Notes: generated by a model from the letters alone, not told the origin. Shown: positions 18,047 to 60,832, counted from the stretch's first letter. The stretch is DNA of 64,000 bases from a virus (IMGVR_UViG_3300032053_000003:30392-94391); one strand, 5' to 3'. Translations and numbers: made by a program.

Positions 18047-18210
18047 ACAGACTTCCTTTGTTTTTTATATCTCAATTGGAGTGTGAAAATCTCATACTGA
18101 TCATCTTCAGCAGTTTGGGAATTGTAGTCAGCTATGTCCGATTTCAGATCTTCAACAATTCCTTTGATGTTGTCAATAGCTTCTCTTATCCTATCAGCTC
18201 TTGTTGACAT
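18043..18210 (-). CDS. hypothetical small coiled-coil protein (start moved to internal Met; ORF track gives 18354)
   Basis: GAGGA SD 5 nt before ATG at 18210; the long version overlaps the neighbouring 18194..18556 ORF by 161 nt. Confidence 0.35.
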   Translation of the reverse strand: MSTRADRIREAIDNIKGIVEDLKSDIADYNSQTAEDDQYEIFTLQLRYKKQRKSV

Positions 18211-18556: not shown

Positions 18557-18837
18557 AAAGTTCCCTTGCCTTCAGTAGCTCTTTTTGCATCAATGGCATC
18601 CATGGTCTTGAACAGACTTTCCAGCTCCATCTCTCTGTGGCACTTGGCACAATGGACACCACCATCATAACCCAGGTAGAAGCTGGTAGTGGTCTTGTAT
18701 TCAGGGTGATTGATACCAGTAGCCACTGGGTGCTTCTTGGCTTCTTCTTTGGTAATTCCACATCGGTCACAGGTATCCTTGTCATAGTTGTACCCATTGT
18801 GAGGGTGACCTTTGGGGTATAACAGTTTCTTCTTCAT
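18553..18837 (-). CDS. hypothetical Cys/His-rich protein
   Basis: 94-aa ORF with CDRCG and CAKCH pairs. Confidence 0.45.
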   Translation of the reverse strand: MKKKLLYPKGHPHNGYNYDKDTCDRCGITKEEAKKHPVATGINHPEYKTTTSFYLGYDGGVHCAKCHREMELESLFKTMDAIDAKRATEGKGTL

Positions 18838-19106
18838 TACTTATTACCTTTTAAGTACTTCCACTGACTCTTACTCATCAGTGCATCTTTGGTTTGACCT
18901 ACTATCTTACCAGTGATCTTGATGATCCTTCCACACCTATCACAACGGTAAATCTCACTCCAATAGTTATCAGGTTCCACATCTTTTCCGTCTGCATCAC
19001 AAGGGTGAAATCCTTCGGTGTGTGAGGTGTTTCCACAAAGACAGGTCCAGTCTTTATCACCACTAGTTTCATTGATATATAGATCTTCTTTATTTTCCAT
19101 GGTCAT
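18837..19106 (-). CDS. hypothetical zinc-ribbon protein
   Basis: 89-aa ORF, CLCG...CDRCG; GAGAGG SD; motif A upstream. Confidence 0.5.
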   Translation of the reverse strand: MTMENKEDLYINETSGDKDWTCLCGNTSHTEGFHPCDADGKDVEPDNYWSEIYRCDRCGRIIKITGKIVGQTKDALMSKSQWKYLKGNK

Positions 19107-19115: not shown

Positions 19116-19149
19116 CCTATAACGGTTTTCACCTTAGCAGTTTGTACAA
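19116..19149 (-). promoter_or_regulatory. conserved promoter-like motif A copy 1 (minus-strand read TTGTACAAACTGCTAAGGTGAAAACCGTTATAGG)
   Basis: Copy 1 of four near-identical 34-bp copies (19116, 20811, 30372, 31538). Each sits about 9-10 nt upstream of the SD/ATG of a minus-strand gene. Confidence 0.5.
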
Positions 19150-19168
19150 ATTTATTCAGCTGCTTTAA

Positions 19169-19525
19169 TTATAATATCTCTCCTGAAATATTTTTAAGAA
19201 ATGCTTTTAGATCTGCAACTTTATCTTTTGGTATTTGAACTGTAACAATAACTGCTGTTTGGGCTTTTTGCCATACCAAGAAAGTCTTTTCAAAGTCTTC
19301 AGTTATGTCTTCATCTGTTACTATGAATCCACCATCAATCTCGATGATGTCAGTATCTTTAAGATTCTCGGTTACATTGACTACAGAGACTCCATTAACT
19401 TTGAATGCTACATCATCGTGGTAGCATCCATTAACCCAGACAAGGGGATCATTATAGAACTTTTTGAATTCGGCACCATTTGTTTTAATCATGACTTCTC
19501 CTTCTTCCATCTTCAATAACCTCAA
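19169..19525 (-). CDS. hypothetical protein
   Basis: 118-aa ORF. Confidence 0.5.
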   Translation of the reverse strand: MRLLKMEEGEVMIKTNGAEFKKFYNDPLVWVNGCYHDDVAFKVNGVSVVNVTENLKDTDIIEIDGGFIVTDEDITEDFEKTFLVWQKAQTAVIVTVQIPKDKVADLKAFLKNISGEIL

Positions 19526-20807
19526 GGCTGGTTACTCTGTTCAGGGTTGTCTCTTTGGTTCCCTGATACTCAGAATGCTTCTTTACAGTAGCCTTTACCT
19601 TAACCACTTCACCAAGCTTGTACCCAGGCTCACCTGAAGCAAACCATACAGCCTTGTCCTTGCCATTCGCTATGAACTTAACAATGGTCTGAAGTCCCCA
19701 GTTACTTTCCTTAGGGTATACACCAATGACTCTTACAATCATCTCTACTCTTTTGCCAACTTCACTGATGTGCTCACTGACACCTGTTACCTGCTCAAGT
19801 CTCTTCTTCTCTTCAAGTCTGTTCTTCTCCCTGAGGTAGCTGTACACCATAGCAGAACCAAGACCAAGGTGACCCATCCCAAATGCTTCTCTCTTTGCCA
19901 GGACCCTGAGGTTGTTCAGGTAGTCACTGGTGGTGTCAGGGTCGATTTGCTTTGCCCACTCAAGGGACTCAGCAGCAGTCTGGGTATCTTCATCAGTAAG
20001 AGGGATCTCTCTACGGAGCTGTTCAGCTGATTTGCCTTTTCCAAAGACATACTCATTTGCTATGTCAGCAGTGGCAGATCCACCACCCATACCCATCTCA
20101 GACTCATTCTTTACCTGGCCTCTGGATTTCCAGCCTAAGGTCCTGATGATAGCAGCAGTCACGGTCATCCAATGTGCTGCTGAGACACTCCAAGAGAAAC
20201 CAATGCCACTACCAAAACCATCAAATTCCTCGGACTCTTTGATCAGGCTCCAAAGGTAAGCACACATCTGAGCTACGTGCTCAGGAGACTCATGACCCAA
20301 GAAGTCTCTGATACAAGAAGAACCAATCCTCTTCTCTGCACCAGACTCCATATGCCTTACGATGTAGGTATTCTTCCTGCTACGGATCTTGTGACAATGA
20401 TCACAGGTATTAGGATCTGTCCTGTACTTCATGTTAAGATCTTCTTCACCAGGAATGGTCTTTATGATGTTGTCTTCACCAAGATGCTCAATAGTAGCAA
20501 CGAACTTCCAACCTGCAAACTTCGGAGGCTGACCCTGGACTTCGATCTCAAAATACTTGATAACCAGGGGGAAGGTAAGCTTTTCATCGGTTATAGGGTG
20601 GTTAGAAAAGGATCTGGTGAACTCTTTAACAACAACATATTCAGGCTGAGTCACACCAAGCTTTACAGCCTTTTTCTGAAGTTTGGCAAAACGAGCTTTG
20701 AACTCTTCCATTCTCCATTCGGGAATAGAGATCGTGGCTACTTTCTCAAGATCTTCGTTCATGTCCACCCAGCCAGTATCGAATTCGTTAGTATTTGTTG
20801 TTACCAT
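19485..20807 (-). CDS. hypothetical protein (440 aa) with CDHCH zinc motif and possible C-terminal OB-like region
   Basis: long ORF; motif A immediately upstream. Confidence 0.55.
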   Translation of the reverse strand: MVTTNTNEFDTGWVDMNEDLEKVATISIPEWRMEEFKARFAKLQKKAVKLGVTQPEYVVVKEFTRSFSNHPITDEKLTFPLVIKYFEIEVQGQPPKFAGWKFVATIEHLGEDNIIKTIPGEEDLNMKYRTDPNTCDHCHKIRSRKNTYIVRHMESGAEKRIGSSCIRDFLGHESPEHVAQMCAYLWSLIKESEEFDGFGSGIGFSWSVSAAHWMTVTAAIIRTLGWKSRGQVKNESEMGMGGGSATADIANEYVFGKGKSAEQLRREIPLTDEDTQTAAESLEWAKQIDPDTTSDYLNNLRVLAKREAFGMGHLGLGSAMVYSYLREKNRLEEKKRLEQVTGVSEHISEVGKRVEMIVRVIGVYPKESNWGLQTIVKFIANGKDKAVWFASGEPGYKLGEVVKVKATVKKHSEYQGTKETTLNRVTSLEVIEDGRRRSHD

Positions 20808-20810
20808 GTA

Positions 20811-20844
20811 CCTATAACGGTTTTCACCCCAGCAGTTTGTACAA
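20811..20844 (-). promoter_or_regulatory. promoter-like motif A copy 2
   Basis: CCTATAACGGTTTTCACCCCAGCAGTTTGTACAA; 31/34 identical to copy 1. Confidence 0.5.
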
Positions 20845-20849
20845 CTATT

Positions 20850-21029
20850 TTACTTTAGTAGTTTCCTTGCCATCCTCTCTATATCAGGATCTAGCCAATC
20901 TCTCTTGGAAGGCAGGGAATCTATGATCTGTCCGAGCACATACTCCAGATCCTTGACCCTCTCACCATAGGTGGCTTCAACAGCTTTTATGATATCGTCC
21001 TTAGTGAGGTTCATTTTATCTCCAGCCAT
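20850..21029 (-). CDS. hypothetical 59-aa protein (MAGDKMNLTKDDIIKAVEATYGERVKDLEYVLGQ...)
   Basis: ATG overlaps the upstream stop as TAATG; fills a gap left by the ORF-track size cutoff. Confidence 0.4.
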   Translation of the reverse strand: MAGDKMNLTKDDIIKAVEATYGERVKDLEYVLGQIIDSLPSKRDWLDPDIERMARKLLK

Positions 21030-21229
21030 TATTTTGCCTCTGTCCTGTAAGGTCGTGGTGTTGTAACCTTCTCTTCAAGCCAGTAAACAAGAACTGAATT
21101 ACATTCTACATTGTATACGGTTCCACATTGTTTACAGGTTACCTTATCAAGAATATGTGGTTCCCAAACAATCCACTTACCACACTTGCACCTATCCCTA
21201 CGTTTCTCCTCACTCATCAGTCTCCTCAC
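21029..21229 (-). CDS. hypothetical zinc-ribbon protein
   Basis: 66-aa ORF, CKCG...CKQCG. Confidence 0.4.
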   Translation of the reverse strand: MRRLMSEEKRRDRCKCGKWIVWEPHILDKVTCKQCGTVYNVECNSVLVYWLEEKVTTPRPYRTEAK

Positions 21230-21446
21230 TTTTTGTTTTTATTGCAATCTTAAGACACAAAGGATGCCTAGCTATCCAACCTTTTTCATTTTCATCCACT
21301 GGTCCGAATAAATAACAATTATTTTTATTATTCAATGACCCTCTGAAGTAGACACAAAAGATCTTTGTATCTGGATTACAACAGGTTGTTTCACCACATA
21401 CTATATCAAAAGATACTTTATATTTCATCACGTTTCTCCAGACCAA
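21210..21446 (-). CDS. hypothetical protein
   Basis: 78-aa ORF. Confidence 0.4.
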   Translation of the reverse strand: MVWRNVMKYKVSFDIVCGETTCCNPDTKIFCVYFRGSLNNKNNCYLFGPVDENEKGWIARHPLCLKIAIKTKSEETDE

Positions 21447-21651
21447 TTTTGACAGCTATGCTCATGCAGTGTTTACAGATGATGCTATGTCTCTTCTGAA
21501 GCTCTATGGCCTCTTTGAAGGTGTGGAGGGTCATAACCTCCAGCCCTTCTTTCAGATGCTGTATATCTTTAACTGAGAGCTTTCTGAGCCACTTCGGTCT
21601 CTTGTCTTTACGCTCCCTTTGTTGCTTTAGAAACTCTTTCCTTGTAAGCAC
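21418..21651 (-). CDS. hypothetical protein
   Basis: 77-aa ORF. Confidence 0.4.
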   Translation of the reverse strand: MLTRKEFLKQQRERKDKRPKWLRKLSVKDIQHLKEGLEVMTLHTFKEAIELQKRHSIICKHCMSIAVKIGLEKRDEI

Positions 21652-21693
21652 TACTTTAGCTCCTTCTTGAGATTGTCATAGAATCCTATGAAG

Positions 21694-21993
21694 TTATGCT
21701 GGCACATCCTGTCCTCTTTCGTAGTAATACTGGCACCTGCCATTGGTATTTACATTGGTGCAGTACTCATCTTTTTGATCAACCTTGCCATTTATACAGT
21801 TGAAGGTAGTTATTAGTTTGCCCCTGCATCGATGGTAATACCACTCAGCATTTTCACGAGATTCGGTGACTCTTTGTTCAAATTGTTCTATGGATTCTGC
21901 CTGAGGTTTACAGGTTAATTGTAAAGAAGTGCAATAGTAGTACTTACACATGATACAAATAGTAGGATCATCTGGTACATCTTTTAAGTCCAT
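21694..21993 (-). CDS. hypothetical Cys-rich protein
   Basis: 99-aa ORF. Confidence 0.45.
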   Translation of the reverse strand: MDLKDVPDDPTICIMCKYYYCTSLQLTCKPQAESIEQFEQRVTESRENAEWYYHRCRGKLITTFNCINGKVDQKDEYCTNVNTNGRCQYYYERGQDVPA

Positions 21994-22296
21994 CTATCGT
22001 TCTCCTTCTTTTTTTGGAACTACTTCTCTATATTTGCCTGTTCCATGACATAAGTGGCAATCCTCAATAGGTTTACCAGGTCTTGTATAATTTAACTGAC
22101 CTCCTATTTGTAAACATATGCAGTTTAATTCTTCCTCTCTCGGTAGGGCATCCCACAAGTCTATTGCAGCCTTCTCAGACAATTGCATAGGACCTCTGAC
22201 ACCACATACACACTGGACAGCAAACATACCTGTAAATAGCTCTGTAACTGCCATTTCATTTGTACATCTGCATACAGTATTTGGACAATTTTTCAT
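21994..22296 (-). CDS. hypothetical Cys-rich protein
   Basis: 100-aa ORF, abuts next gene. Confidence 0.45.
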   Translation of the reverse strand: MKNCPNTVCRCTNEMAVTELFTGMFAVQCVCGVRGPMQLSEKAAIDLWDALPREEELNCICLQIGGQLNYTRPGKPIEDCHLCHGTGKYREVVPKKEGER

Positions 22297-22297
22297 G

Positions 22298-22591
22298 CTA
22301 CTCCTTCAATATGATGTTATTTTTATCAAAATCTTCCAGTTTCTGTATTAAATTTTCGTAACGATTATGAGTAGTAGCTATGTTTTGCAGCAGTCTATTT
22401 CTAACTGCTTTCAAAGCCTCACTGGATGTATCAAAGACTTCTCTATCCTTAGATACCTCTCTGCCTACAGTAGTACTTCTATCAGCACCATGGCTGAAAT
22501 GACGGATAGTACCATCAGAGAAGCACTCTACTTTCAAGATCTGAGTACCTGCAAGAGGCAGCATCCATTTAATAATAGGTTTATCTTCCAT
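22298..22591 (-). CDS. hypothetical protein
   Basis: 97-aa ORF. Confidence 0.45.
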   Translation of the reverse strand: MEDKPIIKWMLPLAGTQILKVECFSDGTIRHFSHGADRSTTVGREVSKDREVFDTSSEALKAVRNRLLQNIATTHNRYENLIQKLEDFDKNNIILKE

Positions 22592-23030
22592 AATTACTCC
22601 TTGCCCTTGCTCTTTCCTCAGGATCTCCTTTTATATAGAAGTACCATATAATGATTGCAATTAATATAAGAGAAAATGCAAATCTTAAAACTAATGCAGT
22701 AAATGCTATAGTTTTAGTAGATCTTAAAGCATCTCTGAGGCAGAGGAAACCATAAATACCTACCCAAAAAACAATAGAGATAGCCATATAGAGCCAATCA
22801 CTATGTGTGTAGTTTACCAAGGCACAAATAAAAGCTATAGCTCCAATGAATGCTGCACTCATGTTATCTATAGAGACTATTTTATGTCCATACAGATTGT
22901 ATGAGTATTCGTGTAAGCACCATAGACCTGCAAAAATACCTACTATACCACCAATAATAGCTAACAATGTTAAGAGTGCCATATCTACTCCTAAGCTTCG
23001 TAGACTGCTAAGCAGCCAGGGTTCTGCCAT
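22581..23030 (-). CDS. hypothetical integral membrane protein (about 4 TM helices)
   Basis: 149-aa ORF with four hydrophobic stretches of about 20 aa. Confidence 0.5.
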   Translation of the reverse strand: MAEPWLLSSLRSLGVDMALLTLLAIIGGIVGIFAGLWCLHEYSYNLYGHKIVSIDNMSAAFIGAIAFICALVNYTHSDWLYMAISIVFWVGIYGFLCLRDALRSTKTIAFTALVLRFAFSLILIAIIIWYFYIKGDPEERARARSNYGR

Positions 23031-23317
23031 TCGATGAATAACCCAAGTTCTCCAGCCCTTTTCTCGATCTTTTCATTGATCCAAGGGTACCCACCACGGA
23101 ATTCACCATAGTAGTCAGCAACACAGGTTTGGCTGTAGCTACACTCAGCAGATATGAACAGTCTGTCTTCTTGCCAGAAAGTAATATCAGGAAGAGTTCC
23201 CTTGAAATTATTGAGGTCACCACCATTTTCCAGCATGAATTTCTTTTCACACTCTATCATGTCCAGGATGATCTTCTGAATGAAATTCTCAAGAGCCTTC
23301 ATCTGTCTTTTAGCCAT
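22991..23317 (-). CDS. hypothetical protein
   Basis: 108-aa ORF; GGAG SD; motif B upstream. Confidence 0.5.
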   Translation of the reverse strand: MAKRQMKALENFIQKIILDMIECEKKFMLENGGDLNNFKGTLPDITFWQEDRLFISAECSYSQTCVADYYGEFRGGYPWINEKIEKRAGELGLFIEWQNPGCLAVYEA

Positions 23318-23336
23318 TTGTTTTGTTCTCCTAATA

Positions 23337-23377
23337 CCTATATGCTTTTCACTTCAACAATTACTACACTTATTTTA
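23337..23377 (-). promoter_or_regulatory. promoter-like motif B copy 1 (ATATGCTTTTCACTTCAACAATTACTACACTTATTTT)
   Basis: Two copies, 36/37 identical (23337 and 23827). Minus-strand core GTGAAAAGCATAT(AGG) resembles motif A core GTGAAAACCGTTATAGG. Confidence 0.45.
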
Positions 23378-23830
23378 CCAAGAGTAATAAAAAACAACAC
23401 TTTCTCCTCTTGGCAGTGTTCCAAGTCTGATTAGGAGTTCAATGATGTCATGATAAGTTAAAGAAATGGCATGGATAGAGTTAGGGAATCTTTCTTCATA
23501 GATACTTTTCCCAAATTTATCTAGAAATTTATTGATATTTACTGGGTTTCCTAAATCTTCCCAAGGATCATATGTGACATACTTGTTGCTGTTTTCGTCT
23601 ATTTTTCTGTACCAAGGTTCATCCAGATATGTGAATATAGAAAAGCACTCTTCTCCCCTCATGTAGCCACATGACCCATCGAGAGCCTTAAAGTCTATTA
23701 CGAGATGTTTCTTTGTTGGGGAATTCCATATTCCCATATGATTAAATTCTAAGCCGGTAAGATCTTCAATCTCGTGCATCATATCTTCTATGTCTATATA
23801 CAAACGATTTTCTGTCTTCATGATATACAT
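23375..23830 (-). CDS. hypothetical protein
   Basis: 151-aa ORF; first gene of minus block; motif B copy 2 spans its start. Confidence 0.5.
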   Translation of the reverse strand: MYIMKTENRLYIDIEDMMHEIEDLTGLEFNHMGIWNSPTKKHLVIDFKALDGSCGYMRGEECFSIFTYLDEPWYRKIDENSNKYVTYDPWEDLGNPVNINKFLDKFGKSIYEERFPNSIHAISLTYHDIIELLIRLGTLPRGESVVFYYSW

Positions 23831-23866
23831 ATGCTTTTCACTTCAACAATTACTACACTTATTTTT
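23827..23866 (-). promoter_or_regulatory. promoter-like motif B copy 2
   Basis: near-identical to 23337..23377; lies in divergent intergenic region. Confidence 0.45.
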
Positions 23867-23923
23867 AGTTTTATTTCCATAAGGCTTGTGTTATAAGGAC
23901 AAATCTTTTGAGGGAGGCTTGTT

Positions 23924-24490
23924 ATGGGTGGTCTGAATTTCTTTAATTTAAGCAATTATCAGTCTGATATACTTATTGAAACAGGTACTGGTGTTGCTCA
24001 TGGTCTGTCATATGCTTTGAAATTTGGTTTTGAAGTATACTTTTCCTGTGAGATTAATGAACAACTGTATACTTCTAATGTAGCAATATTCAAGGGAATA
24101 CCTCATGTTAAACTGTTTAATTGTGATAGTTTGACATTTCTTAATACCATCCTTCCAGTAGTACCCAAGGAAAAGAAGATAGTTTTCTGGTTAGATGCAC
24201 ATTTCCCAGGTGCTGACTTCTTAAATCATGAGAGATCCAGTGAGGATAATAAGATTAATCTACCCCTTACTCATGAAGTAGGTTTGATCTATGAGTATAG
24301 GAAGGGGTGCAAAGATACTATTCTGATAGATGATTTACGTATCTTAATACCCTATGAAAGAGAAAAACTGGAAGAATTAGGTATCTTTTTAAATTATCCA
24401 GGATTGGGCTTCTTGGATTGTTTCAGGGATACACACACCATAAGTGAACATTATGTAGATGAAGGTTATTTGGAGATAGTGCCTATATGA
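23924..24490 (+). CDS. class I SAM-dependent methyltransferase-like protein (Methyltransf_24-like)
   Basis: ILIETGTGVAHG glycine-rich motif I; FWLDAH resembles the LFIDGDH motif of the macrocin/TylF O-MTase family; GAGGGAGG SD. Confidence 0.45.
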   Translation: MGGLNFFNLSNYQSDILIETGTGVAHGLSYALKFGFEVYFSCEINEQLYTSNVAIFKGIPHVKLFNCDSLTFLNTILPVVPKEKKIVFWLDAHFPGADFLNHERSSEDNKINLPLTHEVGLIYEYRKGCKDTILIDDLRILIPYEREKLEELGIFLNYPGLGFLDCFRDTHTISEHYVDEGYLEIVPI

Positions 24491-24993
24491 AAACAAAACA
24501 CATAGAGGTTCTATTTCCTCTTCCAGTAGAGGTTCCACAGGAATTTCACGATAAGTTGGATGTATTATTGAAGCCTCTATCTGAAAGTTCTACTATGGTT
24601 TTTGGAGATCCAGTAAAGAAAAATATCATCACTAAGATAGAGATTACATTCCCTATACCTCTTAATCTCCCTTCTGAGGTTCAGAGGGGCTTAGAAGATC
24701 TCTTACAACCTATCTGTAATAAGTATATGCAGGAACATCCGGATAAGGTGATGTGGTTGTTTGGTAGAGGTTCTAAACCTCTTTGGAGAGAGCCTGAGGA
24801 GCCTGATTGGGATGACTCCATATATTGTATAGAGATTGCTGAGAGGAAAGCTCATCCTAAGGAATTGAAAGCTCACGAGCATCTTCATGTTTGTGCTAAG
24901 TGTAAGGGAGAGGTTGAGGTAATCCCTGAGTCTCAATGTACTGCTGTTTTAAAGTGTAAGAAGTGTGGTCACTGGGATGTGGTGTTATTTTGA
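24487..24993 (+). CDS. hypothetical protein with C-terminal zinc ribbon
   Basis: 168-aa ORF; CAKCKG...CKKCGHW. Confidence 0.5.
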   Translation: MKTKHIEVLFPLPVEVPQEFHDKLDVLLKPLSESSTMVFGDPVKKNIITKIEITFPIPLNLPSEVQRGLEDLLQPICNKYMQEHPDKVMWLFGRGSKPLWREPEEPDWDDSIYCIEIAERKAHPKELKAHEHLHVCAKCKGEVEVIPESQCTAVLKCKKCGHWDVVLF

Positions 24994-25232
24994 AAGGTAC
25001 TGATCATTACCTTCTAAATTTGTTTGTTGTAGGTGATCTTGAGGGAGACTTAATATCTCCTGAAAAATGGCAGGAGCTTTATGCTGAGATGCCTAAAATA
25101 TGTCAAGAGGTAGTAGATCAATCTTCTGATCAATGTATTGGTATAGGAAAAAATGATAAGCTTGGTTGGTTTATTATGGGTTCTGGTCAGGGTCCTGTTT
25201 TATTATGGTCAGAGCATGAGCTAAAGAGATAG
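24963..25232 (+). CDS. hypothetical protein
   Basis: 89-aa ORF. Confidence 0.4.
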   Translation: MWSLGCGVILKGTDHYLLNLFVVGDLEGDLISPEKWQELYAEMPKICQEVVDQSSDQCIGIGKNDKLGWFIMGSGQGPVLLWSEHELKR

Positions 25233-25241
25233 AGGGGATCT

Positions 25242-25517
25242 ATGATACAATCATGTTTGGATCAGTTGAATAAATGGGTAGAAGGTGAGCCTACACACAA
25301 TACTGAAAGAGACGAGTGTTGTCCGGACTTCAGCTGTTGCCATCCTTCAGCCTTTACTAAAGATAAGGTAGAACGTATTAAATTTAGGGATGCTTACCTT
25401 GCAGGGGATACAGAGCTTCAGGAAAAGATGCTGATGATGTTTCTGGCAGGGAGCCTACCAAAGATGACAGATGCCAAGGTTTACATAGCTGGAGATGTAG
25501 ACACTCCTGAAGTGTAA
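25242..25517 (+). CDS. hypothetical protein
   Basis: 91-aa ORF. Confidence 0.45.
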   Translation: MIQSCLDQLNKWVEGEPTHNTERDECCPDFSCCHPSAFTKDKVERIKFRDAYLAGDTELQEKMLMMFLAGSLPKMTDAKVYIAGDVDTPEV

Positions 25518-25520
25518 ATA

Positions 25521-25694
25521 TCAAGGGGCAAGATAGAAGCAGCATACAAGCTGTTTTAGGAGTACTTCCATCTCATTGAACCACTTCTCTTCATCAGGAT
25601 CATGAAGACCTAGAGTGCATTCAGCTTCTTTATAGGCACATTCTTTGAATTTATTTATTATCTCTTTGGCTTCTTGCATTCTAGGATTACCCAT
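25521..25694 (-). CDS. hypothetical 57-aa protein (MGNPRMQEAKEIINKFKECAYKEAECTLGLHDPDEEKW...)
   Basis: AAGGAGAAG SD; ATG overlaps upstream stop as ATGGGTAA; ends 3 nt from the convergent plus-strand gene. Confidence 0.4.
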   Translation of the reverse strand: MGNPRMQEAKEIINKFKECAYKEAECTLGLHDPDEEKWFNEMEVLLKQLVCCFYLAP

Positions 25695-26037
25695 TGTACT
25701 TCTCCTTTAGGAACCTGGTAGCCTCTTTCTCTAAGAAGTCCAGTACTTCAGGAAGCTGCTTGTCTTCCATTTCATCTTTTTTGATGACTGCCTGGAAGAA
25801 TTCTCTGAAGAGTGCTGGGTTCGGAGCTTCATTACAAGGGCATGTTTTATCTTCAGATTCCAGAGCCAAGGATATCAGACCTGCACTGTATCCACGTTTT
25901 TTCATGATGTCATACAGCTGAACCCAGTATCGAGGATTACCTCCTACCAGAGTGTGGAGCACTTTGATCCTGGTTCTCATCTGGCTCTTGAGCTGATCAT
26001 ACCTGTCACAACAGGAACCTCTTTTTGAATAATCCAT
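25687..26037 (-). CDS. hypothetical protein
   Basis: 116-aa ORF. Confidence 0.5.
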   Translation of the reverse strand: MDYSKRGSCCDRYDQLKSQMRTRIKVLHTLVGGNPRYWVQLYDIMKKRGYSAGLISLALESEDKTCPCNEAPNPALFREFFQAVIKKDEMEDKQLPEVLDFLEKEATRFLKEKYNG

Positions 26038-26417
26038 TACTCTACCTCATATGATCTTTCAAGAAGATCATTGTTCTTCTGTTTAGTAATGGCCCTGGAT
26101 ATAACCAGTTCGATAAGGTTAAGGGTACCATCTCTTAGGTAGACATCATGTCCTGTGAGGATCTCATTGATTTTTTCAACAGCTGTTTCTATTATTTTTG
26201 TTTCCTCTTTGGTAAAACCTTCTTTATCATCATATGCTTTGTCCATATAACCCTCCATCCCTTTAGGTAGGTTCTTGCCAGTGATCATTCTGTCAACCGT
26301 GGTTGTGGACAGCCTCAAAGCACGAGCTATCTGAGCTATATTCATATTGGTTGTATGATAGAGATCAAGAGCTGCTTCCCTGTTCTCTTTCCACTTCTTG
26401 ATCTTTTCAGGAGTCAT
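26037..26417 (-). CDS. helix-turn-helix DNA-binding protein
   Basis: NIAQIARALRLSTTTVDRMITGK is a classic HTH. Confidence 0.55.
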   Translation of the reverse strand: MTPEKIKKWKENREAALDLYHTTNMNIAQIARALRLSTTTVDRMITGKNLPKGMEGYMDKAYDDKEGFTKEETKIIETAVEKINEILTGHDVYLRDGTLNLIELVISRAITKQKNNDLLERSYEVE

Positions 26418-26842
26418 TTCTTCAGAGAGATTGAGAAGAGGAAGGTATTGAGGTCCTCAATTAGTTCCTTACATCTTCCAACAGCCTCTTTAACCCTATC
26501 CAGAGACTCACTGGCAACAAGTATTCCCCTGTCATTCCATTTGTCCCAGTAAAGCCTAGAGTAGCCACTATCAGACAGGTAGTACAAATCACCACCTATC
26601 AGCTCCTCAGGAGAGTGAGGCACACATATAAAAGTATGGATGCAGTCACTATAAGGCTTGTTTGTAAGAGCACAATCCAGGAAAGTTATCAGCTCTTTGA
26701 ACTTTTCATTTTTGAACATCTCTACGTTATCAGTAGTCATAGGCTCACCACAAGTTCCACAATTAGCAGGGGTGACCTTGGTTACTGTGAGATCCCTGCA
26801 TCTGTGACATAAATAGGTCTTATCGTGCTTTAATACCTTCAT
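26414..26842 (-). CDS. hypothetical protein with N-terminal zinc ribbon
   Basis: 142-aa ORF; CHRC...CGTCG. Confidence 0.5.
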   Translation of the reverse strand: MKVLKHDKTYLCHRCRDLTVTKVTPANCGTCGEPMTTDNVEMFKNEKFKELITFLDCALTNKPYSDCIHTFICVPHSPEELIGGDLYYLSDSGYSRLYWDKWNDRGILVASESLDRVKEAVGRCKELIEDLNTFLFSISLKK

Positions 26843-27174
26843 GATGTTCTTACCTTTTCCAGGGTAGCATAAATGGAGTGGAGTAAATCACCTTCTGCAT
26901 TCACAATAACAGCCAAGGTGTTCTTCTTTAGCCATACAATTACATCATCTGACAGCATCTCTTCTCTGAGTTTGTTTGATGCTGCATTCATTGCCTGTCT
27001 TTTGGTCATGACAGAGGAGTGCTCCCACATCTTTTTTGAGCTGTCTCTGCTTGTCCTTTCCAGCATAGTTATGTGCCAATTTGCTGGGGACTGCTTAACA
27101 AACTCTATGTGATCACACTCAGAACCACACGGTCTACCTGGGCATGTCTTGGCTGTATGTTGGATTTTTCTCAT
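26839..27174 (-). CDS. hypothetical protein
   Basis: 111-aa ORF. Confidence 0.45.
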   Translation of the reverse strand: MRKIQHTAKTCPGRPCGSECDHIEFVKQSPANWHITMLERTSRDSSKKMWEHSSVMTKRQAMNAASNKLREEMLSDDVIVWLKKNTLAVIVNAEGDLLHSIYATLEKVRTS

Positions 27175-27530
27175 TGCTTCACCATAAAGTCACTGTGATG
27201 ACCTTCTTTATCATTCGGGTACTCTTCATTGTCCATGCCGTGCATCTCACCTTGATCAATCAGATCAATAACCTTGGTACCATCATCCAGTATGTTAGGG
27301 ACTAGTTCACCATACTTTTTATCAATGACCATCCTCACACGTTTAGTGATGAGACTTTTATCAATCATGTGGACTATCTGAACAAGAACATCTTCTTTAT
27401 TGTAGAAATCCTTATCCTCACCTTCTTTGTCAACCTCTCTGGCAAAAAGAAGGATAGGAGTCTCACTGATCACCTGGTAAAGCTTGGTGTGGTGCTGTTT
27501 GAGAGTTATTTTTTCATATGTCTTCATCAT
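27171..27530 (-). CDS. hypothetical protein
   Basis: 119-aa ORF. Confidence 0.45.
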   Translation of the reverse strand: MMKTYEKITLKQHHTKLYQVISETPILLFAREVDKEGEDKDFYNKEDVLVQIVHMIDKSLITKRVRMVIDKKYGELVPNILDDGTKVIDLIDQGEMHGMDNEEYPNDKEGHHSDFMVKQ

Positions 27531-27535
27531 TTTTC

Positions 27536-27862
27536 CTATTCATTAATTTCTATGGAAATGAAATCCTTTCTTGTTTTCTTACAGAGTTTTATAGCTTTAA
27601 TAATGTCTTCATCAGAGACACTCTTCAGATCGTATGCATAGTTGAAATGCCTTATGACACTGCTCAGTTTGCCTTTCTCTTCATATACAGTGGCAAAATT
27701 TCCTGCTGTCCCCATGCTGGAGGCTGTCCATTCTATGACTTTGGTTTCAGAGACTGCCTGATTCATAATCAAATGCTGGGTTTCATTAGGTACTTGATTC
27801 ATAGTCACTCTTTGGGTTTCAACCTTATCTTCATTCATATGTTCCTCGTGGGTTTCAGACAA
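27536..27862 (-). CDS. hypothetical protein
   Basis: 108-aa ORF. Confidence 0.45.
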   Translation of the reverse strand: MSETHEEHMNEDKVETQRVTMNQVPNETQHLIMNQAVSETKVIEWTASSMGTAGNFATVYEEKGKLSSVIRHFNYAYDLKSVSDEDIIKAIKLCKKTRKDFISIEINE

Positions 27863-27903
27863 AAAGGTTTATGAAGGAATTGGGTTTCATTATCCTTGTG
27901 ATT

Positions 27904-28494
27904 TCACTTCATCTGCTCTAATATCCTCCTTGCCTTTGATAAAGGCCAATCCTTAGATACGTGTGCCTTGAGTGCTTCTTCAAGGTCCAGGTCCTCTTCG
28001 ATAACCAACGTGCCATCTGCTACAGCCTGTTTCAGGGTCTCATAGAACTTGCCTGAGAGGATATCCCCAAACGAGGCTGTTACCGAGTTGTTCCCAGCTT
28101 TCAATTCCATCAGAAACAAACCAGAGTTCTTATAAACCTTCTTGGCTCCTTTGAAGGCTCCATCAATCATCTTGTAAGCCCAATCAAAGAGGTTATCTTT
28201 GATCTTCTTACTAAGGGTCCATACTTGCAAGACCCATTCACGTTGCCGATCATACCTTACCCTGATCCATCCTTTCTTAAGCAGGTCTGTCATAACTTGG
28301 TTTCGGGACTTGCCTTCATCCTCAAGCCTATCCCCATGCTCCTTTTCAATAGCCTTGAGGTCATCTAGGGAGTAACCAAACATCTCAGGGTTTTTCATCA
28401 CATAGGCAATATGAGAGTTAGGAATTTCAACCATCTTTCCATTTGGGGAGATCCAGTATCCTTCTAACATTGTTGTCTTCTCCTCAGCCCACAA
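27904..28494 (-). CDS. hypothetical protein
   Basis: 196-aa ORF. Confidence 0.5.
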   Translation of the reverse strand: MWAEEKTTMLEGYWISPNGKMVEIPNSHIAYVMKNPEMFGYSLDDLKAIEKEHGDRLEDEGKSRNQVMTDLLKKGWIRVRYDRQREWVLQVWTLSKKIKDNLFDWAYKMIDGAFKGAKKVYKNSGLFLMELKAGNNSVTASFGDILSGKFYETLKQAVADGTLVIEEDLDLEEALKAHVSKDWPLSKARRILEQMK

Positions 28495-29107
28495 GCTCTT
28501 GGGGACTCTTTTTAGCCAATAGCATCATGCCCCATACCCCAAAACCTGTGGCAGGATAATTAATAACAGATCCGATATCTTCAAAGATGTACGGTCTTCC
28601 TTTAACGTAGCTGGTGTAGATAGGAGAGTCATAACCCAGCCTTCCTTTACTGAAGACTGACTTCTCACCCTTGCCGATCCAGCTGTCTTTGTTGTCACTG
28701 GTTCCTACCAGGTAAGCTTGGGCTTTGTTGTCAATGGCACCCTTGGGGATGAACAAGATGCTGTCTTGGTCGAATTCAACACCGAGATGGATAAGATCCT
28801 TTTCCAGGGTCCCCTGATCCTTGGCATCCACAATAAAGTAGCTCTCTTCCTGTACAGGCTCACCACCCTCAGGATAGGTACCGTGGATACGAGTAAGACT
28901 GTATCCCTTGGACATGAGCTTTGATGCCAGAAGGGTATTACGAGCCTGTTTCTCTTTTTTGCTGTAAGGCTGGGTGTTCCCCTCATCCTTATACCTACGG
29001 AAGGCAGTCATTGCACCACAGTCATGTGCCTGATTGTGTTTCCACAACCTTGACAGGCTGGATTCGTTGACTTCCATGCTATCAATCATTTCCTTTGCTT
29101 TACTCAT
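28484..29107 (-). CDS. hypothetical protein carrying the N-terminal MSKAKEMIDSMEV tag
   Basis: 207-aa ORF; TATAGG-containing motif 30 nt upstream. Confidence 0.5.
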   Translation of the reverse strand: MSKAKEMIDSMEVNESSLSRLWKHNQAHDCGAMTAFRRYKDEGNTQPYSKKEKQARNTLLASKLMSKGYSLTRIHGTYPEGGEPVQEESYFIVDAKDQGTLEKDLIHLGVEFDQDSILFIPKGAIDNKAQAYLVGTSDNKDSWIGKGEKSVFSKGRLGYDSPIYTSYVKGRPYIFEDIGSVINYPATGFGVWGMMLLAKKSPQELVG

Positions 29108-29156
29108 CTCGTACTCCTTATCGGGATATCCTTTAATCCCTATAATACGTTCTTAC

Positions 29157-30353
29157 TTAACCAATCTCAATCAAATACTTGATACTGCACTGGTCGGCAT
29201 CATAAACGATCAGTTCATCATTACGAAGATCAACTCCACCCTCACAAAACAGGGAGTCATACTGTCCCTTGGCCTGGAGAGTGCTGTGGTTACAATTAGA
29301 CATCCATGACTCTCTGCTCTTGGTTCTGTACTCAATGCCTGAATTTACTTCATACAGAGCCAGAAAAGCTTTTCCATCCCTGCCACCTGCCCAATAAGAA
29401 CCAGTGATAGAGGTATAACCCATGCTCTTGGCTGCTTTGTTAGCAAAATATACACCGTTTCCAAACATGGCACCAGTAAGAACAACACCTGAAGGTCTGA
29501 TTAAGAGACCAGTCTTGAGGATGTTCAACCAGTTTTCGTTCCTGGAGCCATGCCACAATAACTTCGTCCAATGCTTATGGGATCTGGTTTTCCTGACTTC
29601 AAGTTTCTTCTGGGTACCATGGTTGACAACCTTGAAAGCCCTCTTGAACTTACCTGCATCAGAACCCATCATCTTTTTGATGGTATCGATATCTTCATTA
29701 GCAGCATGCTCTACTTTGATACCAAGGGCATCTTCAAGAGTCTGGGCACCACTGGTACCATCACTGCCCTGCATGGACACCTGCTGTCTCATGACATCGA
29801 TATTATCCTGTTCTTGGGCAATGAACTTCTTAGCCTCTTTCCTCTGATCTGTAACGTCTCCTGACTGCTCAAGCAGATGATATTGGGTCTTCTTCATTCT
29901 ACGAGGAATGACTGTGTACAACTTGAGGAGCATAGTATTGATTTCATACCCATTCATGTTACAGATATTCAAGGAAAGCTCATCAATGATCCTCTGAGCC
30001 TCATCTACCTGGAGCATGGTGACTTCATTGGCAGACACTGTATATGTTTCGGCAATGTGCTGCTTACTATACTTTTGGAGGGTGTTAAGGAGTTCACGGA
30101 TCTGGGGATCAGTCATATCCTTGAAAGAGGTAGCAACCTTGTCAACCCTGAGAGCCGTGATGTCTTTGTAGCCTTTACGGATCTTTTCGTTGTACTTGGA
30201 GTCCCACTGCTTCATAGGGTAAACCTTTGTAGAAGCTGTGACACCGATCCTGCCCCAAGTGGCTAACCAGTTGCCGTTATCCTGATCTTCCATGTAGTAA
30301 TATTTGTTGTTATTGACATCAGAAACATTAATGAGTTCAACTTTTCGTCCCAT
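29157..30353 (-). CDS. poly(ADP-ribose) polymerase-like ADP-ribosyltransferase (WGR domain + PARP catalytic domain)
   Basis: WGR motif WLATWGRIGV; catalytic blocks LLWHGSRNENWLNILKTGL, GAMFGNGVYFANKAAKS, NDELIVYDADQCSIKYLIEI give an H-Y-E triad. Confidence 0.8.
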   Translation of the reverse strand: MGRKVELINVSDVNNNKYYYMEDQDNGNWLATWGRIGVTASTKVYPMKQWDSKYNEKIRKGYKDITALRVDKVATSFKDMTDPQIRELLNTLQKYSKQHIAETYTVSANEVTMLQVDEAQRIIDELSLNICNMNGYEINTMLLKLYTVIPRRMKKTQYHLLEQSGDVTDQRKEAKKFIAQEQDNIDVMRQQVSMQGSDGTSGAQTLEDALGIKVEHAANEDIDTIKKMMGSDAGKFKRAFKVVNHGTQKKLEVRKTRSHKHWTKLLWHGSRNENWLNILKTGLLIRPSGVVLTGAMFGNGVYFANKAAKSMGYTSITGSYWAGGRDGKAFLALYEVNSGIEYRTKSRESWMSNCNHSTLQAKGQYDSLFCEGGVDLRNDELIVYDADQCSIKYLIEIG

Positions 30354-30371
30354 TTTAGTTAGCTCCCTATC

Positions 30372-30405
30372 CCTATAACGGTTTTCACCTTAGCAGTTTG
30401 TACAA
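30372..30405 (-). promoter_or_regulatory. promoter-like motif A copy 3
   Basis: CCTATAACGGTTTTCACCTTAGCAGTTTGTACAA, identical to copy 1 over 33 nt; upstream of PARP gene. Confidence 0.5.
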
Positions 30406-31194
30406 TTATTTTTTAAGTTTCCAAGAGTTCTTAAAGCCTTTGAATTTCTTGGGTACTACAGTATCTCTGGGTCCCTTTGGCAGTCTCGGTAGAGGTGCAG
30501 TAGGAGTAAATAACTCCAGCTGTTCCAGCTGCTTTACTAAGTGGGAAATAGAAGGATCTCCCTCTGATATCATCTTTTTTATAATAGGTGATGGGCTTAA
30601 GTCAATCTTAGTGCAATGTTTTAAATAAAGACCCAGCCTAACCATATTGACATCCACATGTATCTCTTTCATAAGTTTCCTCTGGTCTTTCAGCCACTGT
30701 TTGTCTTTCTTGTCTGTGTACTTCTTATCCAGTATCTTTTTATCAGCAGAGGATACCGTTAACAGCTCACGATAGATAAAAGTCTGTAAATACCTCTTAC
30801 GAGATGGGTATCTGAGCCTGTTAAGAGCTAGTTTTTCCTTCTGCCTTATTCTCTCCCTGGTGACATTTTGTATTATACCTACCTCTTCTAGTGTCCTTTC
30901 ATCACCTTCATCAAGACCAAATCTCTGGATGATAGTCATAGCCAGGCTGGGAGGTATAGTCTCAAGTACATCAACTATTCCTATAAACAACTCCTTAGCC
31001 ATTAACAGTTCTTCAGGTGTAGGGTCATCAGAGGCCACATGGTCCAGTATGGACATGGAGTCATAGGTTTGATCAATGAGTTCATTCCACAGATCTCTCT
31101 GTAATAGCCAGGCATAGAGACCCTGCTCCCTTCTTATCTTATCCTTCTCTTTGCCCCATCCGAGTCTTTTATTATCAAACTTATCATTCTTCAT
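30406..31194 (-). CDS. RNA polymerase sigma factor, sigma-70 family (regions 3/4) with C-terminal extension
   Basis: LAMTIIQRFGLDEGDERTLEEVGIIQNVTRERIRQKEKLALNRLR is a region-4 HTH; upstream ELLMAKELFIGIVDVLETIPP is region-3-like. Confidence 0.7.
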   Translation of the reverse strand: MKNDKFDNKRLGWGKEKDKIRREQGLYAWLLQRDLWNELIDQTYDSMSILDHVASDDPTPEELLMAKELFIGIVDVLETIPPSLAMTIIQRFGLDEGDERTLEEVGIIQNVTRERIRQKEKLALNRLRYPSRKRYLQTFIYRELLTVSSADKKILDKKYTDKKDKQWLKDQRKLMKEIHVDVNMVRLGLYLKHCTKIDLSPSPIIKKMISEGDPSISHLVKQLEQLELFTPTAPLPRLPKGPRDTVVPKKFKGFKNSWKLKK

Positions 31195-31277
31195 ACTTTA
31201 CATCAATGTTTATTATGATAATCCGTTTTTGTCTAATGTTAAATATGTTTTAGTCCAGTGTTTATTGATGTAATGGG

Positions 31278-31517
31278 TTAGTATTCGTTCTCATAAAACC
31301 TTATATCGGCATTTTTTATCTTATATTCAAATATAGAAGGTGGATCAGGGTAAGAGAGTCCAGGTATGGCTTCATGGTTACTGAGAGCTTTGGTTAGAAC
31401 CTCATCCCTGGTTGCTTTCTTATGCATCCTTACAGATGTTAGAACCTGTTCATTATAATAAAGCCAGTAGGTTCTTTTTATGCTTGTTACATTAGTCATT
31501 GTAGTCACCTGATCCAT
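31278..31517 (-). CDS. hypothetical protein
   Basis: 79-aa ORF; motif A copy 4 upstream. Confidence 0.45.
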   Translation of the reverse strand: MDQVTTMTNVTSIKRTYWLYYNEQVLTSVRMHKKATRDEVLTKALSNHEAIPGLSYPDPPSIFEYKIKNADIRFYENEY

Positions 31518-31537
31518 ATAGTTTTCTCCTTAACATT

Positions 31538-31570
31538 CCTATAACGGTTTTCACCCTACTTGTTTGTACA
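31538..31570 (-). promoter_or_regulatory. promoter-like motif A copy 4 (diverged)
   Basis: CCTATAACGGTTTTCACCCTACTTGTTTGTACAA. Confidence 0.45.
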
Positions 31571-31593
31571 AAATAATTGTATTTGTGGATGAT

Positions 31594-31618
31594 AGGTTTC
31601 GGTTTTCTTAATAGATCA
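31594..31618 (+). promoter_or_regulatory. promoter-like motif C copy 1 (GGTTTCGGTTTTCTTAATAGATCAG)
   Basis: 25/25 identical second copy at 60808..60832; both upstream of plus-strand genes. Confidence 0.45.
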
Positions 31619-31653
31619 GGTTACCTTTTTCTTGAAAATTCTGGAGATACTAA

Positions 31654-32940
31654 ATGAATTATAAACTCAATAAGCTGCTGGAGATATTGAACCTTGTCGA
31701 GGATGACAAGGTTAGGATGGGTACGTTCATTAACAAAGATGTTTTTGGAAATATTTCAGATGAGGAGAGGAAAAAGTGGGCAAGGAAGGCTTCTGAAGCT
31801 GATGATGAGTACCACCAGCTTTATTTTGCTAACAGAGCTTTAGGGTATGATAGGGTCACAGCTCTAAATTATGCTAGGCATCATATTTATAAAGAGACTA
31901 AGAAGATAAAGGGAAAGGGTGGAAAGGAACAACCAAGGCAGGAGAGTGAGCACTCAGTATTCAGGGGACACTCTGGGGAAAAGGAGACTGGAAGTGGGTT
32001 TGAGAAGGCATCAGGACATAAGACAGTATCTGTTGAACGTAAGGAAGCTATAACTAACCTCATTGATAAAGCTAAGACCAAGTTTGAAAAGAACCCTGAT
32101 GCTATAAAGGTTCTGGCTGTCACACTCATTCAACATGGGTTTGATGAGATTATCCCTCCAGCCAAGATTCCTTTTTATGATAATATCATTCAGCTGATAA
32201 AGAAGGCTGAAGCTGATGCTGAAGTTGATACTGGAGCTAAAGGTAAGCGTATGAGAGGGAAGTCCACAGACTTTGCTTTGGTAACTGATGCTCCTCCTAA
32301 TGGTCTCGGTATCACCAGGAGGCTCTACTACGATGTGATGGGCTTCCTTAAGGATAATGCAAAGAGTCTCCAGCACAATGAAGCTTTTATGGCAGGATTG
32401 AAGTCTATCTTTGGTGGGAAGCCCAGTGAGTTCAAACTCTCAAATCTTGAACCTATGATAGATGTCATTAAGAGAGATCTTAATAATAATAAATTCAAGA
32501 GCTATGGTCTTCACCTTCAGGGGGTTACCAAGGAAGAAGGAGAAGATATGCTTAAGGATGTTCCAAGCATCAAACACCAGTATCAGGGTGACGCACTTCT
32601 TATTCCTTTGGAGCCTAAAACCAATTTGAAGTCTGTTCTTAAGAAGGCTATCCCTGGTAAGAAGGTTATCCTGTTTGGTTTTGATTCAAAGCCTCACCCA
32701 CTTCGTAAGGGGTGGGAAGGTTTTCCATATAAGTTGGTCAATAATCCCACTGTTGTTGGGTCTTATTCTCTTTCTACCGAAAGCAAATCCGAGTCCCTTC
32801 TAAAACTCCTTTCTGAAGGTTTTCAGTGTCAGAATTATGATCATTCTACACTATCTTGTGGGCTGAATAGAGAGTGTGGGTGGAAAGGTTTTGCAGGGAT
32901 GGGTGAGGATATGAAGAGAGAGTGTTTAGACTTCAAATGA
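31654..32940 (+). CDS. hypothetical protein (428 aa), first gene of the plus-strand structural block
   Basis: long ORF. Confidence 0.55.
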   Translation: MNYKLNKLLEILNLVEDDKVRMGTFINKDVFGNISDEERKKWARKASEADDEYHQLYFANRALGYDRVTALNYARHHIYKETKKIKGKGGKEQPRQESEHSVFRGHSGEKETGSGFEKASGHKTVSVERKEAITNLIDKAKTKFEKNPDAIKVLAVTLIQHGFDEIIPPAKIPFYDNIIQLIKKAEADAEVDTGAKGKRMRGKSTDFALVTDAPPNGLGITRRLYYDVMGFLKDNAKSLQHNEAFMAGLKSIFGGKPSEFKLSNLEPMIDVIKRDLNNNKFKSYGLHLQGVTKEEGEDMLKDVPSIKHQYQGDALLIPLEPKTNLKSVLKKAIPGKKVILFGFDSKPHPLRKGWEGFPYKLVNNPTVVGSYSLSTESKSESLLKLLSEGFQCQNYDHSTLSCGLNRECGWKGFAGMGEDMKRECLDFK

Positions 32941-35759: not shown

Positions 35760-35771
35760 GGGGGATATGGC

Positions 35772-60807: not shown

Positions 60808-60832
60808 GGTTTCGGTTTTCTTAATAGATCAG
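60808..60832 (+). promoter_or_regulatory. promoter-like motif C copy 2
   Basis: identical to 31594..31618. Confidence 0.45.

Follow-up and report, generated by a model that had tools for sequence, protein, structure and literature searches.

The viral stretch IMGVR_UViG_3300032053_000003:30392-94391, analysed here as a single window of 64,000 nucleotides (nt), contains between positions 19,116 and 31,570 six copies of a repeated element, each of which stands in front of a minus-strand gene. Four copies belong to a type that we call F1 and two to a related type, F2. Comparison with related phages resolves the element into two conserved blocks, and its reading as a promoter is well supported by this comparison. 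We propose that F1 and F2 serve an uncultivated clade of jumbo phages as class-specific bipartite promoters, which would be read via an alternative sigma factor of the extracytoplasmic function (ECF) or sigma-I type. We give this reading a probability of roughly 0.55.

F1 is a 34-mer, TTGTACAAACTGCTAAGGTGAAAACCGTTATAGG, found on the minus strand without mismatch at 19149-19116 and 30405-30372 and with two mismatches at 20844-20811; it gave no match in 100 shuffled sequences. The fourth copy (31571-31538) has four mismatches, all in the central spacer, and retains an intact 17-mer, GTGAAAACCGTTATAGG, which occurs four times where 0.27 occurrences are expected. The two F2 elements (23369-23337 and 23858-23826) have 36 nt in common, AAATAAGTGTAGTAATTGTTGAAGTGAAAAGCATAT, and align with F1 end to end, agreeing at 23 of 34 positions when a 1-nt gap is allowed. 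A repeat finder grouped five of the six copies into one 48-nt family (D17). In a position-weight scan of the window and about 20 kb of its flanks (L003, L006), no further copy rose above the shuffle background. For comparison, F1 copy 1, with its upstream block GTACAAAC at 19147-19140 and its downstream block CGTTATA at 19124-19118, scored 27.7 against a shuffle maximum of 15.5. The six copies are:

19116..19149, minus strand: F1 copy 1, exact 34-mer, before the small gene 18837-19106.
20811..20844, minus strand: F1 copy 2, two mismatches, before the RecT-like gene 19485-20807.
30372..30405, minus strand: F1 copy 3, exact 34-mer, before the PARP+WGR gene 29157-30353.
31538..31571, minus strand: F1 copy 4, at the divergent junction, before orf79 (31278-31517) and a gene for a protein with a sigma region 4 (30406-31194).
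23337..23369, minus strand: F2 copy A (GTAGTAAT-N15-CATATAGG), before the gene 22991-23317 (p108).
23826..23858, minus strand: F2 copy B, before the open reading frame (ORF) 23375-23830.

The four F1 copies and two related F2 elements listed in a first-pass annotation of this DNA are thus borne out by the matches relative to shuffles, by the repeat finder and by the position-weight scan. All six lie in gaps of 42-136 nt and on the same strand as the next gene.

Related loci were reached via homologues of the PARP protein, which is 83% identical in L010, about 70% in L009 and 56% in L014 and L015. L009 is part of a 246,837-bp contig (JGI 3300047675 Ga0501914_00005). These loci are syntenic with the window and carry orthologues of the 428-residue gene at the divergent junction and of several small genes of the 21.7-34 kb region. 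In each of L009, L010 and L014, the commonest 9-mers turned out to be parts of an F1-like motif. This motif is present as ten copies of GTTAAAACAA-N11-TTCGTATA in L009, seven of TTGTAAAAACAATTG-N8-..TCGTATAGGTA in L014 and four of TTGTTAGATCTG-N10-GATTCGTATA in L010, and every copy is on the coding strand immediately upstream of a gene.

The layout common to all of these genomes comprises an upstream block GTwnwAAC, a spacer whose sequence varies among the relatives, and a downstream block TCGTATA, which in the window appears as CGTTATA or GCATATA. The upstream block exists in several versions, namely GTACAAAC in F1, GTAGTAAT in F2, and GTTAAAAC, GTAAAAAC and GTTAGATC in the relatives, the last being that of L010. 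The distance from the C of AAC to the C of CGT is 15 nt in the window, L009 and L014, and 14 nt in L010. The information profile of 25 aligned sites exhibits two high blocks, at positions 2-10 (TGTwaAAAC) and 22-31 (rA.TCGTATA), with a low-information spacer at 13-21. C26, T28, A29 and T30 do not vary at all, and 23 of the 25 sites have G27; F2 reads CAT. There is also a conserved A 3 nt upstream of the downstream block, and the DNA upstream of the whole element is A/T-rich. The first-pass annotation had taken GTGAAAA(C/G)C..TATAGG as the shared core. That core has to be redrawn, as constraint falls on the two outer blocks, GTwnwAAC and rA.TCGTATA, and GTGAAAA is mostly genome-specific spacer.

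The element also recurs at orthologous positions. It precedes the first gene at the divergent junction (31571-31538 in the window, 4112 in L009, 1262 in L014), and the same promoter class stands before the PARP operon in the window, L009, L010 and L014. The gene 22991-23317 and its L009 orthologue (18030-18344) constitute a third case, the latter having an L009-type promoter at 18007. As the two blocks are kept and the spacer varies at these orthologous positions, selection has probably acted on a bipartite promoter and not on a mobile repeat. From these direct observations of repeats, positions and two-block conservation, we infer promoter activity. The more distant PARP carriers L020-L022 and L070, which are unrelated AT-rich phages, do not contain the motif, so the class is clade-specific. 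Scans of IMG/VR with the 17-mer and with the bipartite pattern returned only single chance matches. A scan of JGI metagenomes with the L009-type pattern gave 47 single matches, none of them clustered, and the 14 loci inspected were chance matches in coding sequences. Scans for related loci with the region-4 protein and with the 428-residue protein gave no match.

The repeats could in principle have nothing to do with transcription initiation, and be remnants of a mobile or recombination cassette, operator sites or an element acting at the RNA level. The F1 copies are nearly identical, spacer included, as after a recent duplication, and their upstream block forms an 8-bp palindrome, TTGTACAA, the sole symmetry in the repeat. 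This explanation is nevertheless highly improbable, because the flanks are unrelated among copies, the units are short (34-48 nt, with no repeat beyond 48 nt), orientation and position with respect to the start codons are strict in four genomes, and the relatives vary the spacers and keep both blocks. The longer repeats, terminal inverted repeats and target duplications of MITE- or PeSL-like elements were not observed. RNA structure is unsupported (z-scores of -0.5 to +1.7), and the Rfam families yielded a tRNA-Glu only, with no match for the motifs. The view of the first-pass annotation that the motifs are regulatory, promoter-like DNA therefore holds, given their size, their unrelated flanks, their co-orientation with the genes and the recurrence of the layout at orthologous positions in three related contigs. 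A GNRA-like RNA hairpin, GGU-GAAA-ACC, was tried as a separate candidate and rejected; it did not outscore shuffled sequences, and neither F2 nor the relatives retain it.

The distance between the downstream block and the start codon indicates where transcription probably starts. At six of the 23 listed sites, the ATG of the called gene lies exactly 5 nt past the downstream block and has no Shine-Dalgarno sequence:

Window: 20807.
L009: 5215, 7306, 7879 and 14183.
L010: 4040, where the orthologue alignment starts at that codon.

Chance alone would account for about 0.4 of these cases (P~2e-6, binomial, 24 sites). The window case is F1 copy 2, in which the ATG is 5 nt past CGTTATA and hence 3 nt past TATAGG. 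The simplest reading is that the transcription start (+1) is the A of the ATG, about 6 nt past the downstream block, and that these mRNAs are leaderless. With +1 at this place, the downstream block lies at about -12 to -6 and would therefore play the role of a -10 element. At the remaining sites, the Shine-Dalgarno sequence starts 2-8 nt past the predicted +1, which would give very short leaders. The sites suggest frequent use of leaderless mRNAs in the clade, although other genes have strong GGAGG-type sites, and many of the genes served by the element are probably translated from such mRNAs. The predicted starts in the window, on the minus strand, are:

Near 19112: F1 copy 1.
Near 20807: F1 copy 2.
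Near 23333: F2 copy A.
Near 23821: F2 copy B.
Near 30368: F1 copy 3.
Near 31534: F1 copy 4.

These positions, each given to within ±2 nt, are precise enough to be compared with metatranscriptome reads. They also lead to some corrections of the gene starts. The starts at 20807, 30353, 31517 and 23317 are kept, the start at 19106 is more likely to be 19100, and that at 23830 is likely to be the ATG at 23821, which lies 6 nt past the block of F2 copy B and lacks a Shine-Dalgarno sequence. In addition, the Shine-Dalgarno sequences had been placed about 9-10 nt downstream of the elements. The spacing from TATAGG is 3-7 nt, and F1 copy 2 has no Shine-Dalgarno sequence at all.

The motifs could instead be promoters for a phage-encoded RNA polymerase, virion-delivered or early-made and single- or multi-subunit, rather than for a core enzyme with a sigma factor. 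We regard this as unlikely, though it has several points in its favour. The genome is jumbo-sized, a 230,776-bp contig (ena:ERZ27247916:k141_351042) including part of the window. The motifs are long, highly conserved, clade-specific and unlike sigma-A promoters, TATAGG(G) resembles the initiation region of T7-type promoters, and the genes served (PARP, RecT-like) resemble early host-takeover genes. However, T7-type promoters are contiguous elements of about 20 bp that run through +1, and the sites described here have a variable spacer of 9-10 nt. The fixed 5-nt gap to ATGs without Shine-Dalgarno sequences puts +1 six nt past TATA and not at the G that follows it, which argues both against a T7-type promoter and against TATAGG as the -10 hexamer of sigma-A. 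Sites with such -35/-10 geometry and an A/T-rich flank upstream are characteristic of a bacterial polymerase directed by a sigma factor, and neither the window with its flanks nor the loci of the relatives yielded a polymerase-like ORF.

The first-pass annotation had loosely likened the arrangement of CTGCTAA and TATAGG to T4 middle promoters. In these, a MotA box at -30 is combined with a sigma-70 -10 element, through AsiA/MotA sigma appropriation (PMC6755090). In generalised form, the analogy would have the host sigma-A holoenzyme bind the downstream block and a phage activator the upstream block. The palindrome of the F1 upstream block would suit an activator, as would the TGT..ACA-like arms in relatives (TGT-N4-ACA in L014, GTT-N2-AAC in L009), the variation of this block from genome to genome and the several small helix-turn-helix proteins encoded in the window. 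A block of the form GT..AC is, however, trivially self-complementary at its ends. Primary sigmas need an A at -11 of the -10 element, and TCGTAT and CGTTAT do not provide it. The alternative hexamer TATAGG has no T at -7 and would place +1 beyond the leaderless ATGs. No register has both an A at -11 and a T at -7 and is compatible with the leaderless ATGs, and there is no -10 of the sigma-70 type TAnnnT. The proposed MotA box, CTGCTAA, is spacer sequence and is not conserved: F1 copy 4 has CAAGTAG and F2 TTGTTGA in its place, and the spacers of L009, L010 and L014 do not contain it. No member of the MotA or AsiA families was found by Pfam or PHROG among the window ORFs scanned. The likeness to T4 middle promoters is thus not sustained, and an activator acting with sigma-A seems improbable.

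A dedicated alternative sigma accounts best for the two blocks. Promoters of ECF sigmas exhibit an AAC triad in the -35 element, CGTA or CGTC in the -10 element and a spacer of 14-17 bp, and those of sigma-I an A-tract in the -35 and CGAA in the -10 element (PMC5758882, PMC6056542). The elements described here have CGT(A/C) in the downstream block (CAT in F2) and a spacer within this range (15 nt in the window, L009 and L014; 14 nt in L010). The AAC triad is present in F1 (GTACAAAC), L009 and L014, and absent from F2 (GTAGTAAT) and L010 (GTTAGATC). We infer from these likenesses the kind of sigma involved. A multisubunit RNA polymerase carrying a dedicated ECF/sigma-I-type sigma would recognise the layout AAC...N15...CGTA, the -35-like block being about 15 nt upstream of the -10-like block. 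Transcription would start about 6 nt past the latter, giving mRNAs that are leaderless or have a Shine-Dalgarno sequence within a few nt of their 5' end. The gene of the cognate sigma would lie outside the window, in the phage or, less likely, in the host.

Several points weigh against this proposal. The ECF label fits only part of the family, since the AAC triad is missing from F2 and L010 and the CGT of the downstream block is replaced by CAT in F2. With +1 at the leaderless ATG, the triad lies at about -29 to -27, whereas textbook ECF promoters have it a few bp further from +1. Within this genome the spacer of F1 hardly varies, which may reflect either a recent duplication or a second constraint. 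Neither a complete sigma gene nor an RNA polymerase gene was found in about 84 kb of this genome and about 60 kb of its relatives. Finally, sigma-A-like matches, against which F1 and F2 are set off as a distinct class, are not enriched overall, with 40 found and 43.7 expected from shuffles.

The sigma-A-type matches that stand in other gaps are the following:

16300-16271, minus strand: TTGACA-18-TATTAT, before 14926-16230; the best sigma-A-type match of the region.
29142..29170, minus strand: TTGAGA-17-TATTAT, before the S-adenosylmethionine (SAM)-lyase-like gene 28484-29107.
31215..31242, minus strand: TTAACA-16-TATCAT, in the gap upstream of the region-4 gene; 10 of 12 positions, a match to the consensus only.

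That they stand in short gaps is no more than suggestive. The TATTATAGGG element before 29107, which had been counted as a member of the F1/F2 family, is the -10 of the second of these matches and has no GTAnnAAC block upstream in register. The presence of such matches, together with the canonical TRERIRQ helix in the region 4 described below, makes the host sigma-A look ordinary and F1/F2 a distinct class.

The first-pass annotation had also noted a separate motif before the plus-strand genes that start at 31654 and 60880, and this holds, with two exact copies of the 25-mer GGTTTCGGTTTTCTTAATAGATCAG, whose core is CGGTTTTCTTAATAG:

31595..31619, plus strand: 25-mer, 39 nt from the 3' end of the core (31614) to the ATG of 31654-32940.
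60808..60832, plus strand: second exact copy, 52 nt from the 3' end of the core (60827) to the GTG of 60880-61233.
31654-32940, plus strand: 428-residue gene, the first of the plus-strand, virion-side block.

Only these two copies occur within the 32 kb available. In L009 (4064) and L014 (1145), the core recurs with a single mismatch ahead of the orthologue of the 428-residue gene, and the class exhibits no sigma-A-like -35/-10 arrangement. Its position suggests that CGGTTTTCTTAATAG is probably a third promoter class, which heads the plus-strand block. On the minus strand, the gap 3019-3137 contains a terminator-like hairpin (AAAAACAGGAACT...AGTTCCTGTTTTT), then TTGACA, and then TCTTAATAGA, the same 10-mer that forms the core of the 25-mer class on the plus strand. 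The clade would gain a readable transcription map, with host-type matches before accessory genes, the two-block class before genes of the junction and a third class before virion-side genes.

The remaining claim of the first-pass annotation was that the window encodes its own sigma-70-family factor, which could read one of these classes. The gene in question is:

30406..31194, minus strand: 262-residue protein, of which residues ~49-140 (30775-31050) correspond to region 3.2/4 of primary sigmas.

Residues 1-48 and 141-262 are orphan sequence. Pfam detected Sigma70_r4 only (2e-09) and no Sigma70_r2, and the protein aligns with the last ~70-95 positions of sigma chains such as RpoD and SigA (PDB, NCBIfam, PHROG). 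Within region 4 it is 45-59% identical to cellular primary sigmas and conserves TLEEVG..NVTRERIRQ (alignments with 1tty and 8gzg). In an alignment-based structural model, only residues ~60-140 are confident, with a predicted local distance difference test (pLDDT) score of 70-90 for residues ~70-130, and Foldseek matched this model to sigma-A region 4 only, with a root-mean-square deviation of ~1.0 A over 66-70 columns (e.g. 7kug, 7kuf). A single-sequence fold was uninformative. Since region 2 is lacking, only 48 residues preceding the match, the protein is not a complete sigma and cannot melt a promoter.

The protein is also isolated in its distribution. No convincing homologue of the C-terminal 122 residues was found among 1.84 billion representatives, the matches being a copy in another strain (97% identical) and one match of 25% identity over ~44 residues (E 7e-5). 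For the whole protein, 5.8 billion clusters contained no intermediate relatives and only a strain copy, 98% identical. By tblastn, no homologue was detected in L009, L010, L014 or L015, and L010 has two unrelated small genes in its place. The protein is thus not co-conserved with either motif class.

The claim could be rescued if the protein, alone or with a separate region-2 partner in a split sigma, conferred specificity on transcription from F1/F2 or from the 25-mer class. Its region-4 helix-turn-helix is intact and its gene adjoins two F1 copies. A two-part sigma arrangement, T4 gp55+gp33, is reportedly known, and "minimal" sigmas with a single helix-turn-helix have been described in T4-like (group 2) jumbo phages (PMC7824862). 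We nevertheless consider such a role very unlikely. The four related loci keep both promoter classes and have no homologue, the strain copy being the only relative. The protein shares its recognition helix, residue for residue, with primary sigmas, and these recognise TTGACA-type -35 elements, not GTACAAAC. No region-2-like ORF was found among the 58 small ORFs and the larger ORFs scanned, and the adjacent orf79 has no family match. The claim that this protein reads one of the motif classes is consequently not upheld. Two further proteins of the window, a zinc-ribbon protein (24487-24993) and a Cys-rich protein (25242-25517), both from conserved genes on the opposite strand, were considered as sigma candidates and do not appear sigma-like.

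The 262-residue protein is best seen, from its distribution and upstream DNA, as the product of a strain-specific accessory gene with a host-type promoter match of its own. The SAM-lyase-like gene is likewise absent from the relatives and preceded by a host-type match, which hints at immediate-early expression of both genes. A speculative possibility, which we hold to be rather unlikely, is that the protein acts as a region-4 decoy. It would then either rival the host sigma-A for the beta-flap or -35 DNA, turning off those host and early transcripts that depend on the -35 element to the benefit of F1/F2, or sequester proteins that bind region 4 (anti-sigmas, activators or an MzaA-like defence sigma). 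The best NCBIfam and PADLOC match is MzaA, a defence-associated sigma, slightly above RpoD; this match is only a lead, and a literature search on MzaA gave unrelated papers only. If true, a region-4 decoy would represent a hitherto undescribed kind of device for host takeover or anti-defence. This region-4-only orphan is the most unusual item of the region and a small lead on phage interference with host transcription or defence. It is also an annotation trap, as a Sigma70_r4 match does not mean a sigma factor here.

With regard to the surrounding genome, the source is an uncultivated, jumbo-sized phage of ~230 kb. On one side of the divergent junction (31518-31653), between position 1 and 31.5 kb, the genes are on the minus strand, and on the other, starting at 31.65 kb, they are on the plus strand. 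The minus-strand side comprises chiefly small orphan ORFs. Its recognisable genes include:

29157-30353, minus strand: PARP+WGR gene (Pfam).
28484-29107, minus strand: SAM-lyase-like gene.
19485-20807, minus strand: RecT-like gene (match to phrog_2319, and RecT-like according to one phage record).

Other recognisable genes on this side encode RtcB, a Mom-like protein and NADAR. Together with PARP+WGR and the SAM-lyase-like gene, these are candidates for counter-defence or host modification (28484-30353, 4137-4565, 3138-4073 and 10300-11391, minus strand). The 58 small ORFs also include matches to Tad6, a Thoeris inhibitor, and to DUF4326. Within the minus-strand cluster, four genes form an island on the opposite strand (23924-25517, plus), which includes the zinc-ribbon protein and the Cys-rich protein of 91 residues; the latter is kept in L009, L010 and L014, again on the opposite strand. 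A single tRNA-Glu (UUC) is located at 17466-17540 on the minus strand, amid minus-strand genes. The 434-residue ORF at 14926-16230 (minus) matches, over residues 225-361, the NCBIfam model "TIGR-Tas system RNA-guided endonuclease" (1.1e-17, 64.8 bits; cut-off 100). It is followed by two unusually long non-coding gaps, 14605-14925 and 13378-13851, which contain a 12-nt tandem repeat present 2.9 times (TTTTGGGGTCTT, 14888-14922) and a 14-nt repeat present twice (13761-13788).

The plus-strand side encodes giant collagen-like fibre proteins and a fibre-protein domain. Five proteins of 486, 1579, 1049, 485 and 1458 residues (34299-50879, plus) consist of Gly-X-Y-like GSS/GTS repeats with a 9-nt period; they are candidates for collagen-like tail fibres and the main source of repeats in the window. 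By coordinate arithmetic, a related assembly seems to stop at ~38,870 of the window, within this repeat block. A glycosyltransferase-like protein of 1484 residues (54259-58713, plus) is apparently interrupted by an intein, with Hint/Intein_splicing and LAGLIDADG signatures at residues ~266-646, each below the Pfam cut-off. Among 50,697 phage records, no DNA match was found with the 19-32 kb part of the window as query, and no protein match for the plus-strand genes of 428 and 307 residues. A scan of GTDB genomes with the family of the 428-residue protein, meant to point to the host, also gave no match.

Compared with known systems, the region 4 of the 262-residue protein resembles T4 AsiA, which stands in for region 4 on the flap, T4 gp33 and the minimal sigmas, in that each has a single helix-turn-helix domain of the type contacting the beta-flap and -35 DNA. 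It differs from these in being a true copy of the region 4 of cellular RpoD, ~45-59% identical and flanked by orphan sequence. With regard to the promoters, T7-type single-subunit polymerase promoters have in common with F1/F2 their high conservation and a TATAGG(G) just before the gene, and differ by the variable central spacer seen here. T4 middle promoters also exhibit a phage-specific upstream element in place of the -35 box, before non-late genes (PMC6755090), whereas in F1/F2 the TGCT-like string is not conserved and the -10 is not sigma-70-like. Several phages use a sigma of their own on the host core enzyme and have a short over-represented motif, such as phiEco32 with TAATGTATA (PMC4331800), and SPO1 encodes sigmas of its own for middle and late transcription. 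The promoters of phiEco32, phage 7-11 and SPO1 resemble F1/F2 as over-represented, non-sigma-A motifs before one temporal gene class, and a GTATA core is common to phiEco32 and the present family. The motif of phiEco32 is, however, a single -10-type element, whereas F1/F2 are bipartite, and the phages are unrelated. The closest likeness is with ECF (group 4) and sigma-I promoters, e.g. tgaAAC...CGTA of Bacillus subtilis sigma-W. These also have two short blocks, an AAC or A-tract, CGTA, a spacer within 14-17 bp and near-consensus stringency. In contrast, F1/F2 have a longer -10 block (rA.TCGTATA) and stand in a phage gene cluster instead of a stress regulon. A class-specific bipartite phage promoter is thus of a familiar kind, and what is new here is its consensus.

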